From Escherichia phage HY03, in the sequence record NC_031047.1: DNA of 64,000 nt, one strand, 5' to 3'. The position numbers and the translations under genes were made by a program. Positions 2,901-60,463 of this stretch are shown one piece after another (within the stretch, counting starts at the first letter, position 1; each line of letters begins with the position of its first letter). Below the pieces are notes generated by a model. That model searched no databases. It was not told the DNA's origin and saw only the letters and a program-made list of their open reading frames with translations.

Positions 2901-3283
2901 AATTCAGCGACTTTTCACAAAGTGGAAAACCTTCAAAGGCAGATGAATACTTAGGTTTATTAATGGCTGCGCAAGCTTATTTTCATTCTGCGCATTTTGA
3001 AACTAAAAGTTATGCTAGACACAAAGCATACGATTTTATTTTCTCTGAGTTGCCAGATTTGATTGATAAATTTGGTGAGCAATATTTGGGGTATTCTGGT
3101 AGAAAATACACGCCTTCAATTCCAGATGCTAGTAAACTTCCTACCGACACAATTAAAATGATTGATCGCATACTAGACCAATCTAACAGCATTTATAAAG
3201 AAATGCCTCCAGCTATCCAAAGCACGATAGATGATATTACTGGAATGTTTTACCAGAGTAAGTATCTTCTTTCCCTCGAATAA
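2897..3283 (+). CDS. hypothetical protein (rI.-1 position)
   Basis: 128-aa ORF overlapping rI stop. Confidence 0.6.
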
Positions 3284-3287
3284 CATT

Positions 3288-3310
3288 AGTCTCCTTCGGG
3301 AGACTTTTTT
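3288..3310 (+). terminator. rho-independent terminator
   Basis: AGTCTCC-TTCG-GGAGACT hairpin followed by T6. Confidence 0.8.
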
Positions 3311-3320
3311 CATTTTACCG

Positions 3321-3350
3321 GTTTACTTTCCGTTTGAGCTGTGGTACTAT
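3321..3350 (+). promoter_or_regulatory. T4 early promoter
   Basis: GTTTAC, 18-nt spacer, TACTAT; conserved TGGTACTATACAACTATC segment. Confidence 0.75.
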
Positions 3351-3378
3351 ACAACTATCGGATAAAGAGGAGAACATC

Positions 3379-3567
3379 ATGAAAATTGAAGCACTTAATC
3401 AAGAAGGAAATATCTACGTCATCATTAATGGTGATTTTTTCGTCGACATGGATGAAGTTACCAGTGAAGAACTTGTAGAACTTCTTAAGAAACGTTATAA
3501 TATGTGTGATGAAGTTGCAACTCACATGGCGTGTGCAATATTCTCTCTTTCATATGTGGTGGAATAA
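3379..3567 (+). CDS. hypothetical protein
   Basis: 62 aa; AGAGGAG RBS before ATG. Confidence 0.5.
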
Positions 3568-3770
3568 TGATTAGTATCGAACAAGCGGATAAGATTAAAG
3601 AATTGGTAGCTTTAATTCGTAAAGCAGATGAAGAGCTGATTGACTTTGCTTGGTATTCATCGGGTATTTCGAATAAAGGCATTAAAGACTTTGAAACTAA
3701 AGTGGATAATGCTATAGAAGCGTTAGATATGTTTCTTGATGAAATTATTGATCATAATACGAGAGTTTAA
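3567..3770 (+). CDS. hypothetical protein
   Basis: 67 aa; GGTGGA RBS; start overlaps upstream stop. Confidence 0.5.
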   Translation: MISIEQADKIKELVALIRKADEELIDFAWYSSGISNKGIKDFETKVDNAIEALDMFLDEIIDHNTRV

Positions 3771-3772
3771 GT

Positions 3773-3973
3773 ATGTTAACACGTGAACAGTTTGAAAAAA
3801 TCATTAAATTAGCACGTGATGTTGAAATAGATTCATACCAATTGGCAGTTGAGCATTGTGAAGGATATTCATACGACGGTATAGAAGCAGCTAAAAAGGA
3901 TTTGGATAAATCTAAAGCTAAGTTAGTTCAATATCTTGAAATGATTAGGTGGAATAATGAAAACTGTAGTTAA
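3773..3973 (+). CDS. hypothetical protein
   Basis: 66-aa ORF. Confidence 0.5.
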   Translation: MLTREQFEKIIKLARDVEIDSYQLAVEHCEGYSYDGIEAAKKDLDKSKAKLVQYLEMIRWNNENCS

Positions 3974-54826: not shown

Positions 54827-55084
54827 ATGAAATATGTTAATCGTTCTATCGCAGCATTAGTATTAGCAGTGTCTTTAGTAGGATGTACTGATGCTGATAA
54901 TGCAACCAAAGTTTTGTCTTCAAGCGGTTTTACTAATATTGAAATCACTGGATATAATTGGTTCGGTTGCTCTGAAAATGATTTCCAGCATACTGGATTT
55001 CGTGCTATTGGGACCTACTGGGCAGAAAGTAGAAGGAACAGTATGTTCTGGACTATTCTTCAAGGATTCGACTATCCGTTTTAA
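54827..55084 (+). CDS. putative lipoprotein (39.1 position)
   Basis: 85 aa; lipobox LVGC. Confidence 0.55.
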   Translation: MKYVNRSIAALVLAVSLVGCTDADNATKVLSSSGFTNIEITGYNWFGCSENDFQHTGFRAIGTYWAESRRNSMFWTILQGFDYPF

Positions 55085-55087
55085 ATA

Positions 55088-55105
55088 AAAGGCCTTCGGG
55101 CCTTT
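55088..55105 (+). terminator. UUCG-tetraloop hairpin
   Basis: AAAGGCC-TTCG-GGCCTTT. Confidence 0.55.
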
Positions 55106-55130
55106 AGCTTTATGATTACCGGAGTATAAT
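55106..55130 (+). promoter_or_regulatory. middle-type promoter (variant MotA box)
   Basis: AGCTTTA, 12 nt, TATAAT upstream of gene 39. Confidence 0.5.
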
Positions 55131-55157
55131 ATTCCCGAAACCAAACGAGGATAAGTG

Positions 55158-56708
55158 ATGATTAAGAATGAAATTAAAATTCTGAGCGATATTGAACATA
55201 TCAAAAAGCGTAGCGGCATGTACATTGGCTCTTCTGCTAATGAAATGCATGAGCGCTTTCTGTTTGGTAAATGGGAAAGTGTTCAGTATGTACCTGGTCT
55301 TGTTAAGCTTATTGATGAAATTATCGATAACTCAGTAGATGAAGGTATTCGTACTAAGTTTAAATTCGCAAATAAAATTAATGTTACTATTAAAAACAAT
55401 CAAGTAACAGTTGAAGATAACGGTCGCGGTATTCCACAGGCGATGGTTAAAACACCTACCGGTGAAGAAATTCCTGGTCCTGTTGCTGCGTGGACTATTC
55501 CAAAAGCAGGTGGTAACTTCGGTGATGATAAAGAACGCGTCACTGGCGGTATGAATGGTGTTGGTTCTAGTTTGACAAACATTTTTTCTGTGATGTTTGT
55601 CGGTGAAACTGGTGATGGTCAAAATAATATTGTAGTTCGTTGTTCAAATGGCATGGAAAATAAATCATGGGAAGATATTCCCGGAAAATGGAAAGGAACT
55701 CGTGTTACTTTCATTCCTGATTTTATGTCATTTGAAACTAATGAGTTGTCCCAAGTTTATCTTGACATTACATTAGATCGTCTCCAGACACTTGCTGTTG
55801 TTTATCCTGATATTCAATTTACCTTTAATGGTAAAAAGGTTCAGGGCAATTTTAAGAAATATGCACGCCAATATGATGAACATGCTATCGTTCAAGAACA
55901 AGAAAATTGTTCTATTGCGGTCGGTCGTTCACCGGATGGTTTTCGTCAATTAACATACGTCAATAACATTCACACTAAGAATGGTGGTCATCACATTGAC
56001 TGTGTTATGGATGATATTTGTGAAGACCTTATTCCACAAATCAAACGTAAGTTCAAAATTGATGTAACTAAAGCACGTGTCAAAGAATGTTTGACTATCG
56101 TTATGTTTGTTCGTGATATGAAAAACATGCGATTTGATTCTCAAACTAAAGAACGACTTACTTCTCCTTTTGGTGAAATTCGTAGTCATATTCAACTTGA
56201 TGCTAAAAAGATTTCACGTGCTATTTTAAATAATGAAGCAATTTTAATGCCGATTATTGAAGCTGCTTTGGCTCGTAAATTGGCGGCAGAAAAAGCAGCA
56301 GAAACTAAAGCAGCTAAAAAGGCTTCTAAAGCTAAGGTTCATAAACATATTAAAGCGAATCTTTGCGGTAAAGATGCTGACACTACTCTTTTCTTGACTG
56401 AGGGTGATTCGGCTATCGGATATCTTATTGATGTTCGTGATAAAGAACTTCACGGCGGTTATCCATTGCGTGGTAAAGTTCTTAATAGCTGGGGTATGTC
56501 ATATGCTGATATGCTTAAAAACAAAGAACTATTTGATATTTGCGCAATCACTGGATTAGTTCTTGGTGAAAAAGCGTTTGAAGAAAAAGAAGACGGTGAG
56601 TGGTTTACTCTCGAACTAAATGGTGATACAATTATTGTAAATGAAAATGATGAAGTACAGATTAATGGTAAATGGATAACAGTAGGTGAATTACGAAAAA
56701 ATCTATAA
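55158..56708 (+). CDS. 39: DNA topoisomerase II large subunit gp39 (ATPase plus Toprim N-part)
   Basis: 516 aa; GHKL ATPase motifs; matches T4 gp39. Confidence 0.9.
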   Translation: MIKNEIKILSDIEHIKKRSGMYIGSSANEMHERFLFGKWESVQYVPGLVKLIDEIIDNSVDEGIRTKFKFANKINVTIKNNQVTVEDNGRGIPQAMVKTPTGEEIPGPVAAWTIPKAGGNFGDDKERVTGGMNGVGSSLTNIFSVMFVGETGDGQNNIVVRCSNGMENKSWEDIPGKWKGTRVTFIPDFMSFETNELSQVYLDITLDRLQTLAVVYPDIQFTFNGKKVQGNFKKYARQYDEHAIVQEQENCSIAVGRSPDGFRQLTYVNNIHTKNGGHHIDCVMDDICEDLIPQIKRKFKIDVTKARVKECLTIVMFVRDMKNMRFDSQTKERLTSPFGEIRSHIQLDAKKISRAILNNEAILMPIIEAALARKLAAEKAAETKAAKKASKAKVHKHIKANLCGKDADTTLFLTEGDSAIGYLIDVRDKELHGGYPLRGKVLNSWGMSYADMLKNKELFDICAITGLVLGEKAFEEKEDGEWFTLELNGDTIIVNENDEVQINGKWITVGELRKNL

Positions 56709-57504
56709 TGACTTAATAGCGCGGGGTAAAACTCGCGTTTCTAAATTTAAAGGTGAAATTCACCATATCCTTCCAAGATCAATGGGAGGTTCTGATGATA
56801 AAGAAAATTTGGTAAAACTGACTTTTCGTGAACACTTTTTAGCACATTTTCTACTATATAAAATTCATCGTAATCGTGAAATGGCATATGCGATGAATAG
56901 AATGTTAAACACTGAAAAATATTTACGTTCTAGTAAATTATATGAAATTGCTAGAATTTACCATCAAAGAGCAGTATCTGAATGGTCAAAAAACTTTATG
57001 AAAGATAAAGTTTTAATGAGAAGTATTAAATCGGGTAAATGCGCCTTATTAATTAAAGGATCATTTAACCCAAAGGAATGGTGCGGTGTTAATAAAGGTG
57101 TTAAGCTTCCTGGAATTAAAGGCATGACATGCTTTAAAAATGAAAAAGGCGAAGTTTTTCGTCTTCATGTTAATGATCCACGCATTAAAGCTGAAAAATT
57201 AGTTGGTATTGGAAATACTGTTGCTGCTACTGCAAAAGCAGCTGAACTTGAAAAAGCGAAACCATGGTATAATAAATCAGCGACAAATCCAGAGGCTGTA
57301 AAATTAATACCAAATTTATATGAATGGTACGTCACGAAATATGACCCCGATCATTATAAACGAACGGGAGTTGCTAAATGGAAATCAGTTAATAATATAA
57401 CTGTGAATTCAAAATTATTCGGCCGAGCATTTAATGAATTTAAACGCGGCTGGATTCCTGATGAAAAGTTCTACGAGGTGTATAATGAAATTTGTAAAAA
57501 TTGA
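56686..57504 (+). CDS. mobA: HNH homing endonuclease
   Basis: HNH motif EIHHILPRSMGGSDDKENLVKLTFREHFLAH; inserted between 39 and 60; start (GTG 56686) uncertain. Confidence 0.65.
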   Translation: MNYEKIYNDLIARGKTRVSKFKGEIHHILPRSMGGSDDKENLVKLTFREHFLAHFLLYKIHRNREMAYAMNRMLNTEKYLRSSKLYEIARIYHQRAVSEWSKNFMKDKVLMRSIKSGKCALLIKGSFNPKEWCGVNKGVKLPGIKGMTCFKNEKGEVFRLHVNDPRIKAEKLVGIGNTVAATAKAAELEKAKPWYNKSATNPEAVKLIPNLYEWYVTKYDPDHYKRTGVAKWKSVNNITVNSKLFGRAFNEFKRGWIPDEKFYEVYNEICKN

Positions 57505-57622
57505 TTCTTCTAGCATTGATATGAAAAAATATAAATCGCAGAACAATGTCCGTCGTTCTATTAAATCCTCTTCAATGAACTATGCGAATGTCGCTATTAT
57601 GACAGACGCAGATCACGATGGA
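57485..57622 (+). CDS. 60: topoisomerase II subunit gp60, codons 1-46 (before bypass)
   Basis: MKFVKIDSSS...DADHDG ending at take-off GGA followed by TAG. Confidence 0.85.
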
Positions 57623-57672
57623 TAGCCTTCGGGCTATCTATAGAAATACCTCATAATTAAGAGATTATTGGA
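57620..57672 (+). promoter_or_regulatory. gene 60 translational bypass element (take-off GGA, 50-nt gap, landing GGA)
   Basis: GGA UAG then UAGCC-UUCG-GGCUA hairpin; landing GGA exactly 50 nt after take-off; reading frame resumes UUA GGU UCU. Confidence 0.85.
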
Positions 57673-58017
57673 TTAGGTTCTATTTATCCTTCTCTGCTCG
57701 GATTTTTTAGTAATTGGCCAGAATTGTTTGAGCAAGGACGAATTCGTTTTGTCAAAACTCCTGTAATCATCGCTCAGGTCGGTAAAAAACAAGAATGGTT
57801 TTATACAGTCGCTGAATATGAGAGTGCCAAAGATGCTCTACCTAAACATAGCATCCGTTATATTAAAGGACTTGGTTCTTTGGAAAAATCTGAATATCGT
57901 GAGATGATTCAAAACCCAGTATATGATGTTGTTAAACTTCCTGAGAATTGGAAAGAGCTTTTTGAAATGCTCATGGGAGATAATGCTGACCTTCGTAAAG
58001 AATGGATGAGCCAGTAG
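57673..58017 (+). CDS. 60: topoisomerase II subunit gp60, codons 47-160 (after bypass)
   Basis: LGSIYPSLLGFFSNWPELFEQGRIRFVK... matches T4 gp60. Confidence 0.85.
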   Translation, partial: LGSIYPSLLGFFSNWPELFEQGRIRFVKTPVIIAQVGKKQEWFYTVAEYESAKDALPKHSIRYIKGLGSLEKSEYREMIQNPVYDVVKLPENWKELFEMLMGDNADLRKEWMSQ

Positions 58018-58046
58018 TTTACTTTACCACAAGGATGTGGTATAAT
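58017..58046 (+). promoter_or_regulatory. T4 early promoter
   Basis: GTTTAC overlapping gene 60 stop, 18 nt, TATAAT. Confidence 0.7.
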
Positions 58047-58071
58047 TAATTGGGCAAATGAGGATATTGAA

Positions 58072-58275
58072 ATGAAATCATATAGAGTAAATTTAGAACT
58101 TTTTGATAAAGCAGTTCATCGAGAATATAGAATCATTCAACGCTTTTTCGATATGGGAGAAGCCGAAGAATTTAAAAACCGCTTTAAGGATATTAGAGAT
58201 AAAATTCAATCCGACACCGCAACTAAAGATGAACTACTAGAAGTTGCTGAAGTTATTAAACGCAATATGAATTAA
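58072..58275 (+). CDS. hypothetical protein (rIIA.1 position)
   Basis: 67-aa ORF. Confidence 0.55.
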
Positions 58276-58285
58276 TGAGGAAATT

Positions 58286-60463
58286 ATGATTATCACCACT
58301 GAAAAAGAAACAATTCTTGGTAATGGTTCTAAATCAAAAGCATTTAGCATCACAGCATCTCCTAAAGTATTTAAAATTCTGTCATCTGATTTGTATACAA
58401 ACAAAATTCGCGCAGTAGTCCGTGAATTAATTACTAACATGATTGATGCTCATGCACTTAATGGAAATCCTGAAAAATTTATTATACAAGTTCCTGGACG
58501 TTTAGACCCACGATTTGTTTGTCGAGATTTTGGTCCGGGTATGAGTGATTTTGATATTCAAGGTGATGATAATTCTCCTGGTCTGTATAATTCATACTTC
58601 AGTTCATCTAAGGCTGAATCTAACGATTTCATTGGCGGATTTGGTTTAGGTTCTAAATCTCCATTTAGTTATACTGATACATTTAGTATTACTTCGTATC
58701 ATAAAGGTGAAATTCGTGGTTATGTAGCTTACATGGATGGTGATGGTCCACAGATTAAACCTACATTCGTAAAAGAAATGGGTCCAGATGATAAAACTGG
58801 TATTGAAATCGTAGTTCCAGTTGAAGAAAAAGACTTTAGAAACTTTGCTTATGAAGTTTCTTATATCATGCGACCGTTCAAAGATTTGGCTATCATTAAT
58901 GGTCTTGACCGCGAAATTGATTATTTTCCGGATTTTGATGACTATTACGGTGTAAATCCAGAAAGATACTGGCCAGATCGTGGTGGATTGTATGCTATCT
59001 ATGGTGGTATTGTTTATCCTATTGATGGTGTTATTAGAGACCGTAACTGGCTAAGCATTCGCAATGAAGTGAATTACATTAAGTTTCCAATGGGTTCACT
59101 TGATATTGCTCCATCACGTGAAGCTCTTTCATTGGATGATCGTACTCGTAAAAATATTATTGAACGAGTTAAAGAGCTTAGTGAGAAAGCATTTAATGAA
59201 GATGTAAAACGATTTAAAGAATCTACATCTCCTCGTCACACATACCGTGAATTGATGAAGATGGGGTATTCTGCTCGAGATTATATGATTAGTAATTCAG
59301 TCAAATTCACGACTAAAAATCTGTCATATAAAAAGATGCAGAGCATGTTTGAACCTGACAGTAAGTTATGCAATGCAGGGGTTGTGTATGAAGTAAATCT
59401 TGACCCTCGACTGAAACGCATTAAGCAAAGTCATGAAACTTCAGCCGTCGCATCAAGTTATCGTCTGTTTGGTATTAATACAACAAAAATTAATATCGTT
59501 ATTGATGATATTAAAAATCGTGTTAATATTGTTCGTGGATTAGCACATGCGTTAGATGATAGTGAATTTAATAACACTTTAAATATTCATCACAATGAGC
59601 GTCTTCTGTTTATTAATCCAGAAGTAGAATCGCAGATTGATTTACTCCCTGATATTATGGCGATGTTTGAAAGTGATGAAGTTAACATTCATTATTTGTC
59701 AGAAATCGAAGCTTTAGTTAAAAGCTATATTCCAAAGGTAGTTAAAAGTAAAGCTCCTCGTCCTAAAGCTGCTACAGCATTTAAGTTTGAAATTAAAGAC
59801 GGGCGCTGGGAAAAAGAGGAATTATTTACGCTCACATCAGAAGCAGATGAAATTACTGGTTATGTAGCGTATATGCATCGTTCTGATATTTTCTCTATGG
59901 ATGGTACTACATCTCTTTGTCATCCATCTATGAATATTTTGATTCGTATGGCTAATCTTATTGGCATTAATGAATTTTATGTTATTCGTCCGCTTTTACA
60001 GAAAAAGGTAAAAGAACTCGGTCAGTGCCAATGTATTTTTGAAACTTTGCGTGATTTATATGTAGATGCTTTTGATGATGTAGATTATGATAAGTACGTA
60101 GGTTATTCAAGTTCAGCTCAACGATATATTGATAAAATTATCAAGTATCCTGAGTTAGATTTTATGATGAAGTACTTCAGTACAGATGAAGTTTCTGAAG
60201 AATATACACGACTCGCTAATATAGTTAGTTCATTGCGCGGTGTATATTTTAATGGTGGAAAAGATACCATTGGTCATGACATCTGGACAGTAACTAATCT
60301 TTTTGATGTATTATCAAATAATGCTTCAAAAAACAGTGATAAAATGGTTGCTGAGTTTACCAAGAAATTCCGCATTGTTTCCGACTTCATCGGTTATCGC
60401 AACTCTTTAAGTGATGATGAAGTTTCTCAAATCGCTAAAACTATGAAGGCCCTTGCGGCCTAA
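58286..60463 (+). CDS. rIIA: rIIA membrane-associated protein
   Basis: 725 aa; GHKL-like N-terminal ATPase motifs; matches T4 rIIA. Confidence 0.9.

Follow-up and report, generated by a model that had tools for sequence, protein, structure and literature searches.

The best described relative of the locus considered here is the MobA element of phage T4, the classic T4 mobile element that created gene 60 and its 50-nucleotide (nt) translational bypass. Published MobA elements are 1097-1106 nt long, with 64 nt of the parental gene deleted in phage HY01; they are recognized by a deletion of 55-75 nt, a C-terminal extension (CTE) of gp39 of about 44 amino acids (aa) plus an extension of the gp60 N-terminus (NTE) by 44-46 aa (Manning & Atkins 2022). 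The segment known as homR is 67-81% identical to the deleted parental segment, is longer by 9 bases in the T4 clade, and belongs to the region that holds the MobA nick site in T2 (Manning & Atkins 2022). Nicking, homing and self-protection by the gap have been published for MobA (reviewed in Manning & Atkins 2022; Edgell, Gibb & Belfort 2010). According to published work, CTE and NTE together form a Toprim insertion of about 70 aa; it juts out from the domain and probably aids assembly of the split subunits. Here we examine the corresponding locus in a 64,000-nt stretch of Escherichia phage HY03 (NC_031047.1), referred to below as the window. A preliminary description of this DNA had pointed to an open reading frame (ORF) with an HNH motif between the gp39 ORF and gene 60. 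This ORF is almost certainly mobA, the free-standing HNH homing endonuclease gene of the MobA element cassette that splits genes 39 and 60. The feature is therefore already known, and the cassette brings no new biology as such.

Identity and boundaries of the cassette

The ORF listing places mobA on the plus strand between GTG 56686 and TGA 57502-57504, encoding 272 aa. As had been proposed, the ORF overlaps both its neighbours, sharing 23 nt with the end of gene 39 and 20 nt with the start of gene 60, whose ATG lies at 57485. The surrounding 3-kb region is 97.7-98.2% identical at the DNA level to T4, T4T, RB55, RB59, HY01, PEC04 and others, and the source phage is a Tequatrovirus closest to HY01 and PEC04. 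In the T4-like matches, the counterpart of the window ORF is annotated as "mobA: homing endonuclease". The mobA coding sequence of T4T maps to exactly the same start and length as the window ORF, and the T4T annotations of gene 39, of the two joined segments of gene 60 and of the bypass all map to the positions given in Table 1. By tblastn, the MobA protein is 99.3% identical to those of LH2 and CJY920 and 98.9% identical to that of T4. Full-length orthologues were found in Salmonella phage NP4 (60%), Acinetobacter phage Stupor (49%) and Aeromonas phage Aes516 (36%), each lying between split topoisomerase ORFs. Like other members of the MobA element group, the window encodes an orthologous HNH endonuclease in the range of 269-279 aa, out of frame and overlapped by both tails. 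No second MobA-like gene was detected in the window at E<1e-3 when MobA was compared against it by tblastn. On the 3' side of the gene 60 stop at 58017, rIIA.1 and then rIIA follow, as in the layout of phage T4.

Homology searches supported the HNH assignment, and failure of this very test had been named in the preliminary description as grounds for rejecting it. MobA matches PHROG 655, "homing endonuclease", with E=1.8e-57. The motif noted earlier, EIHHILPRSMGGSDDKENLVKLTFREHFLAH, comprises MobA residues 24-54, and among 25 MobA relatives 16 match the Pfam HNH family PF01844 at E<=0.01 (best 5.8e-7). In the 25-member family alignment the invariant positions are M1, N2, Y3, Y7, E24, H26, H27, I28, N41, E49, H50, H54 and L56. 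When a profile of this alignment was compared with solved structures, it matched solely HNH domains, namely those of Cas8-HNH fusions, a group II intron maturase and McrA, and the His...Asn...His residues with HNH spacing (H26, H27, N41, H50, H54) align to the motifs of all three. The NCBIfam search returned nothing beyond a sub-threshold touch on the HNH region of IscB. On these alignments the assignment of the window allele to the HNH (beta-beta-alpha-metal) nuclease superfamily holds, with nuclease activity predicted. A separate similarity was noticed in MobA residues 60-112 (56865-57021), which weakly resemble the C-terminal domain III of T4 baseplate gp6 (Pfam PF21871, E=8e-4, 19.8 against 27 bits; PDB 9f4a, E=0.18); this resemblance is probably due to chance.

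The extent of the insertion was obtained from an anchored comparison with RB14 and T2, in which, as had been suggested for some T-even phages, 39 and 60 form one continuous gene (annotated "60plus39" in RB14). Identity to these phages runs to 56575 (...GGTGAAAAAGC) and returns at 57682 (ATTTATCCTTCTC...). Between the parental residues ...GEKA and IYPS, the segment ENLNYHNIAIMTDADHDGLGS has been replaced: 64 nt are out and 1106 nt are in. The insertion falls at the conserved site, where the topoisomerase II large-subunit gene encodes Toprim, and splits that gene into two ORFs, of which the downstream segments carry the Pfam domains TOPRIM_C and DNA_gyraseB_C. The preliminary description was therefore right about an insertion into the topoisomerase gene, and wrong in taking the endonuclease ORF alone as the inserted unit. 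The cassette contributes the 44 final codons of gp39, mobA itself, the 46 opening codons of gp60, and the gap of 50 nt with 9 bases behind it; the gp39 and gp60 parts are in-frame tails new to the two halves of the gene. Taken together, homR, the diverged copy in which the NTE ends, and the 9 nt behind the gap (57673-57681) are identical to RB14 at 41 of 57 positions. The same contrast appears in the wider phage records: 643 of them match the region, 40 of these cover it in full, and relatives 95-98% identical to the window, including RB14 and T2, match in two pieces that span 979 nt against 2021 nt in the window, a pattern seen in an evenly spaced sample of the ranked records.

All elements of the bypass are present, in the order GGA UAG CCUUCGGGCUAUC ... 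GGA UUA at 57620-57675. The gap holds a GC-rich hairpin, the take-off stem-loop was recovered by RNA folding, and after the gap gene 60 resumes with GGA-TTA-GGT. Throughout 57623-57672 there is no difference from T4T. Rfam, searched with 55000-58400, gave two sub-threshold chance matches and returned no family that covers the bypass element.

Table 1. Features of the 39-mobA-60 region, in window coordinates
Feature	Position	Strand	Basis
Gene 39, N-terminal part of the topoisomerase II large subunit (ATPase and transducer, with the initial half of Toprim); 516 aa	55158..56708	+	Pfam HATPase_c, DNA_gyraseB; T4T annotation
Whole MobA mobile cassette, 1106 nt in place of 64 nt	56576..57681	+	Anchored alignment with RB14 and T2; matches Manning & Atkins 2022
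CTE of gp39, 44 codons and stop, AFEEKEDGEWFTLELNGDTIIVNENDEVQINGKWITVGELRKNL	56576..56708	+	RB14/T2 identity stops at 56575
mobA, HNH homing endonuclease ORF, 272 aa, GTG start	56686..57504	+	ORF listing, T4T annotation, PHROG, orthologues
HNH catalytic motif, residues 24-54 (H26 H27 ... N41 ... H50 ... H54)	56755..56847	+	Invariant columns; solved HNH structures
Gene 60 first segment (NTE), 46 codons, the last being the take-off GGA	57485..57622	+	Sequence reading, T4T annotation
homR, the cassette's copy of the deleted parental segment	57575..57622	+	Alignment with RB14; homR published
Untranslated bypass gap, 50 nt: UAG, take-off stem-loop, landing GGA at 57670-57672	57623..57672	+	T4T misc_feature; folding
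Second segment of gene 60, with the remainder of Toprim plus the C-terminal domain	57673..58017	+	Pfam TOPRIM_C

Conservation, mobility and initiation signals of mobA

To describe variation we used 12 T4-clade copies, taken singly from GenBank phage records: the window, T4T, PEC04, JEP6, ELT1, pSe_SNUABM_01, BF15, e11/2, G50, LH2, CJY920 and ESh36. In all 12, mobA is intact at 272 aa, with its GTG preceded by a stop codon. The copies differ at 13 sites, with synonymous change at 10 of them and non-synonymous change at the other 3; given 166 synonymous and 650 non-synonymous sites in the gene, this corresponds to a ratio of about 0.08 and departs from neutrality with a binomial p=2e-5. Hence mobA is under purifying selection, and the suggestion that the ORF might be decaying was not borne out, since it is also full-length across genera. 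In the same phages nucleotide diversity was 0.0043 for mobA and 0.0083 for the whole element, against 0.032 for gene 39 upstream and 0.043 for gene 60 downstream. An element much younger than the genomic background is what homing would lead one to expect, and its several-fold lower diversity than the gene around it, within the T4 clade, is direct evidence from sequence of continued movement between phages. This is in agreement with the published view of recent and repeated insertions (Manning & Atkins 2022).

Two element haplotypes were distinguished. The HY01-type occurs in the window, PEC04, JEP6 and pSe_SNUABM_01, and the T4-type in T4T, BF15, e11/2, G50, LH2, ESh36 and CJY920. Compared over 56594-57550, the ELT1 cassette is a mosaic, HY01-type in the CTE and 5' part of mobA and T4-type from 57450 on, indicating that recombination has taken place between the element haplotypes. 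The haplotypes of the flanks assort independently of those of the element.

The start of mobA was examined next to its initiation signals. An in-frame TAG at 56683-56685 (TAA instead in pSe_SNUABM_01) directly abuts GTG 56686, so the frame cannot open any further upstream, and its next ATG is codon 33, which lies within the HNH motif. The orthologues in Salmonella, Acinetobacter and Aeromonas phages carry ATG-AAT-TAT (MNY) at the homologous codon, in an ATGA overlap with the upstream stop. The MobA N-terminus is therefore orthologous, and the GTG of the T4 clade takes the place of the ATG of the others. Later starts have been annotated elsewhere, at GTG codon 12 (JEP6, MT984581) and ATG codon 33 (pSe_SNUABM_01, ESh36). 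Codon 12 reads GCG in the window, which leaves GTG 56686 as the sole canonical start on the 5' side of the motif. The preliminary description had singled out this GTG as the best start, a choice shared by the T4T annotation and by a published review that names mobA as the one free-standing endonuclease of T4 for which a GUG start is predicted and gives its overlap with gene 39 as 23 bp (Edgell, Gibb & Belfort 2010).

Pairing of the 22 nt on the 5' side of the GTG with the anti-Shine-Dalgarno sequence amounts to -3.1 kcal/mol, and 32% of random 22-mers from the region do at least as well; the values for genes 39, 60, rIIA.1 and rIIA are -5.9 to -7.2 kcal/mol. The mobA orthologues in other genera also have no Shine-Dalgarno sequence. 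By folding, RNA structure at the mobA start was not above that of shuffles (z=+0.72), and a hairpin hiding the ribosome-binding site, as published for mobE of Aeh1, is accordingly unsupported for mobA. The late-promoter motif TATAAATA does not occur in the 39-mobA-60 region. In the promoter and terminator scan, sigma-70-like sites were not enriched; as they were fewer than in shuffles (12 against 16.8), we do not claim a promoter for mobA. The GTG lies 20 nt on the 5' side of the gene 39 stop, with a background-level Shine-Dalgarno sequence and no promoter signal, which is the anatomy expected of translational coupling. As judged from these signals, it is plausible that mobA would be translated at a low level, possibly coupled to gene 39 translation. 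In the literature mobA is described as a promoter-less cassette, probably expressed through ribosome scanning after termination (Edgell, Gibb & Belfort 2010).

Two observations on promoter-like sequences can be added here. A sigma-70-like site, TTTACT-17-TACAAT, occurs within the CTE at 56604-56632 (+), about 55 nt on the 5' side of the mobA start, and has an extended -10 TG; this TG is found in the HY01-type haplotype only, the T4-type being without it, and the site may be a chance occurrence. In the whole 64-kb window TATAAATA occurs 3 times (2349, 13926 and 44785, all +) against 11.1 expected, and 100 of 100 shuffles had at least 3. The late-promoter core thus appears to be depleted in what is mostly an early and middle gene region.

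The GUG, the stop just before it, the background-level Shine-Dalgarno sequence and the 23-nt overlap are invariant across the T4 clade. It is conceivable, if on balance doubtful, that these features together form a tuned termination-reinitiation device that would tie MobA to gene 39 translation and delay the nuclease. For mobA, the termination-reinitiation idea has been proposed in reviews and never shown. The window offers a natural test case for reinitiation, being the sole copy that lost the second in-frame GTG, with GCG at codon 12.

Translation and function of mobA

Evidence on translation comes from the time-resolved proteome of T4-infected cells, in which mass spectrometry found the T4 protein "gp60.1" (P39487, Y00B_BPT4) absent early and present late at an intensity of about 2e8 (Wolfram-Schauerte et al. 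2022, PMC9697503). The protein was classed as "late" and its RNA as "early" (Wolfram-Schauerte et al. 2022). We found that gp60.1 equals MobA residues 147-272, with 124 of 126 positions identical to the window protein. Consequently the mobA frame is translated in T4-infected cells. Lack of translation had been named beforehand as an outcome that would count against an endonuclease gene; on that point the frame is translated, as far as residues 147-272 of the T4 protein are concerned.

A few results weigh against reading the window ORF as the mobA homing endonuclease gene. Searched alone, the window MobA scores 20.1 bits against PF01844, with a gathering cut-off of 21.4 bits (E=7e-4). At the 5' end of mobA, within 95 nt, the window has four substitutions (56720, 56733, 56751 and 56814) that occur in not one of 41 public copies, and one of them is V12A (GTG to GCG), which abolishes the alternative start used by some annotators; they could belong to a further, third haplotype of the element or have come in through a short tract of conversion. 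Finally, the proteomic evidence covers only residues 147-272, from T4, and the N-terminus is outside this coverage. Since the search database did not contain residues 1-146, these data cannot place the N-terminus of MobA. If the frame were translated solely from an internal start, ATG codon 33 or codon 147 (the "gp60.1" start), the product would have an incomplete HNH motif and a role other than that of a nuclease. Such a reading would suit the limited proteomic coverage, the weak Shine-Dalgarno sequence at the GTG and the annotation of codon 33 in the two records named above. We nevertheless consider it very unlikely: residues 1-32, in which lie the N-terminal MNY and the motif's HH, are kept in every relative found, synonymous-only change dominates in codons 1-50, the HNH motif is required for the published homing and nicking activity, and no canonical start other than GTG 56686 precedes the motif in the window.

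An even less probable reading is that mobA is a decaying pseudogene, the remnant of a past invasion whose nuclease is no longer made. In its favour, AF158101 and NC_000866 annotate a "MobA homing endonuclease pseudogene" together with a separate ORF 60.1, and the laboratory T4 copy is called a pseudogene in the Manning & Atkins 2022 preprint; the GTG start and poor Shine-Dalgarno sequence would fit as well. However, set against the window and T4T, the T4 reference carries 11 insertions of a single base, scattered and mostly of G, along with several substitutions, all of them within 56802-57208, and the extra bases are already in the 1980s record X06220. Ten other T4 records (OZ209023, OZ209057, HM137666, KJ477684-6, OL964735, OL964745, OZ035787 and MT984581) are exactly as long as the window over the common region; this comparison concerns length and overall identity, the ORF itself having been checked in the 12 T4-clade copies. 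With the ORF intact in all of these, mostly synonymous variation, full-length conservation at 60%, 49% and 36% identity in other genera, and peptides of the mobA frame found in T4-infected cells, the decay reading is largely refuted. From the scattered extra bases, their presence in X06220 and the length of the ten other T4 records, the "MobA pseudogene" and gp60.1 annotations of the T4 reference appear to be legacies of 1980s sequencing errors, and the statement of the preprint on laboratory T4 appears to rest on that reference record. The matter is of practical importance, as the "pseudogene + 60.1" annotation still spreads into omics tables and recent claims of a dead mobA in laboratory T4. 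In the compared piece of AF158101.6 the segment in question is 2120-2916, and the same is found in NC_000866 and X06220. It was also noticed that the lengths of 39.1 and 39.2 differ between the T4 reference and T4T annotations, which suggests further reference errors near gene 39.

MobA nicking, cassette homing and self-protection by the gap are said to have been the central claims of the 2011 work of Bonocora et al. Applied to the mobA of the window, the mechanism would run as follows. In a mixed infection with a cassette-free phage such as T2, MobA would nick one strand of the uninterrupted gene in the region equivalent to homR, and the cassette would be copied across in its entirety by recombinational repair from the cassette-bearing genome. 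The carrier's own copy would be shielded from MobA by the 50-nt gap, which lies about 20 bases off the nick site. Having no promoter of its own, mobA would be carried on gene 39 transcripts, and initiation at GUG 56686, with its poor Shine-Dalgarno sequence 20 nt before the gene 39 stop, would be infrequent, possibly relying on re-initiation by ribosomes that end gene 39, and would keep the nuclease scarce. It has been published that progeny receive the cassette at high frequency when T2 is the partner in a mixed infection, and that homR polymorphisms alone are insufficient to block self-cleavage, the 50-nt gap being what blocks it. To these published properties the present comparison adds the identity, boundaries and intactness of the HY03 cassette, the purifying selection on its mobA and its lower-than-flank diversity.

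One may ask whether the cassette, besides spreading on its own account, is also kept for the benefit of the phage, with MobA excluding the topoisomerase region of cassette-free rivals in co-infection, and/or with the split enzyme and the bypass conferring a regulatory advantage. Purifying selection on mobA and retention of the element in several lineages are what such a benefit would lead one to expect. Yet, out of roughly 500 close relatives, only about 40 carry the element, published surveys report repeated loss of the endonuclease, and in vitro the activity of the split topoisomerase resembles that of the fused one (published). We therefore regard a phage benefit as rather unlikely; it would come on top of homing, not in its place.

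Related elements and neighbouring features

The nearest system is the T4 mobA and gene 60 bypass cassette, MobA element clade 1 (Manning & Atkins 2022), which shares with the window the site, the architecture, the 1106-nt length class, the GTG and the overlaps, besides the identical gap of T4T and the 98.9% identical T4 protein noted above. The difference is allelic only: the CTE and NTE of the window are of the HY01/PEC04 haplotype (gp39 ...FTL..., gp60 ...SSSID...KS...), whereas its gap is of the T4 haplotype. The MobA elements of Salmonella Gelderlandvirus NP4, Acinetobacter Lazarusvirus Stupor and Aeromonas phage Aes516 are alike in the full-length orthologue, the split topoisomerase and the lack of a Shine-Dalgarno sequence. 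They differ in having an ATG with a 4-nt stop overlap (ATGA); in the T4 clade the start is GTG and the overlap 23 nt long, because gene 39 reads another frame across the junction. Two features of the Aes516 record were noted in passing. It annotates a predicted 17-nt translational bypass in the gene 60 homologue (1855-1871 of the compared piece), and its MobA orthologue has a coding sequence annotated from 1162, the open frame actually running from ATG 901.

MobE and other free-standing Mob-type HNH endonucleases share with MobA the N-terminal MNYxKIY...HHIxP...N...EH module, and their genes are likewise promoter-less cassettes overlapping the upstream gene (Edgell et al. 2010). In contrast, the C-terminal region of MobA from about residue 110, presumed to bind DNA, is confined to MobA orthologues, and the target gene of MobE is nrdB. 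A scan of IMG/VR with MobA, made via the MNYEKIYN pattern, returned distant Mob-family genes and no T4-clade copies; the ATG starts of these matches are dictated by the pattern and were excluded as evidence.

A second Mob-type HNH gene (MNYRKIYDKLI...) adjoins the same host gene in F1, F27 and CJY920, and its product is about 62% identical to MobA over the first 70 residues. It differs from mobA in encoding 265 aa with another C-terminal part, and in lying after the stop codon (1-nt overlap, TAATG) without splitting the gene. In the compared pieces it occupies 1276-2073 in F1, 1501-2298 in F27 and about 2921-3834 in CJY920. It was seen in some Tequatrovirus and Mosigvirus phages, CJY920 having both genes, and is absent from the window at 58017/58018.

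On the 5' side of gene 39, the gene named 39.1 in T4T lies at 54827-55084 (+) and begins MKYVNRSIAALVLAVSLVGC, which resembles a lipoprotein signal and includes a lipobox cysteine. The 39.1 ORF is followed by a GC-rich hairpin, AAAAGGCCTTCGGGCCTTT, at 55085-55110.

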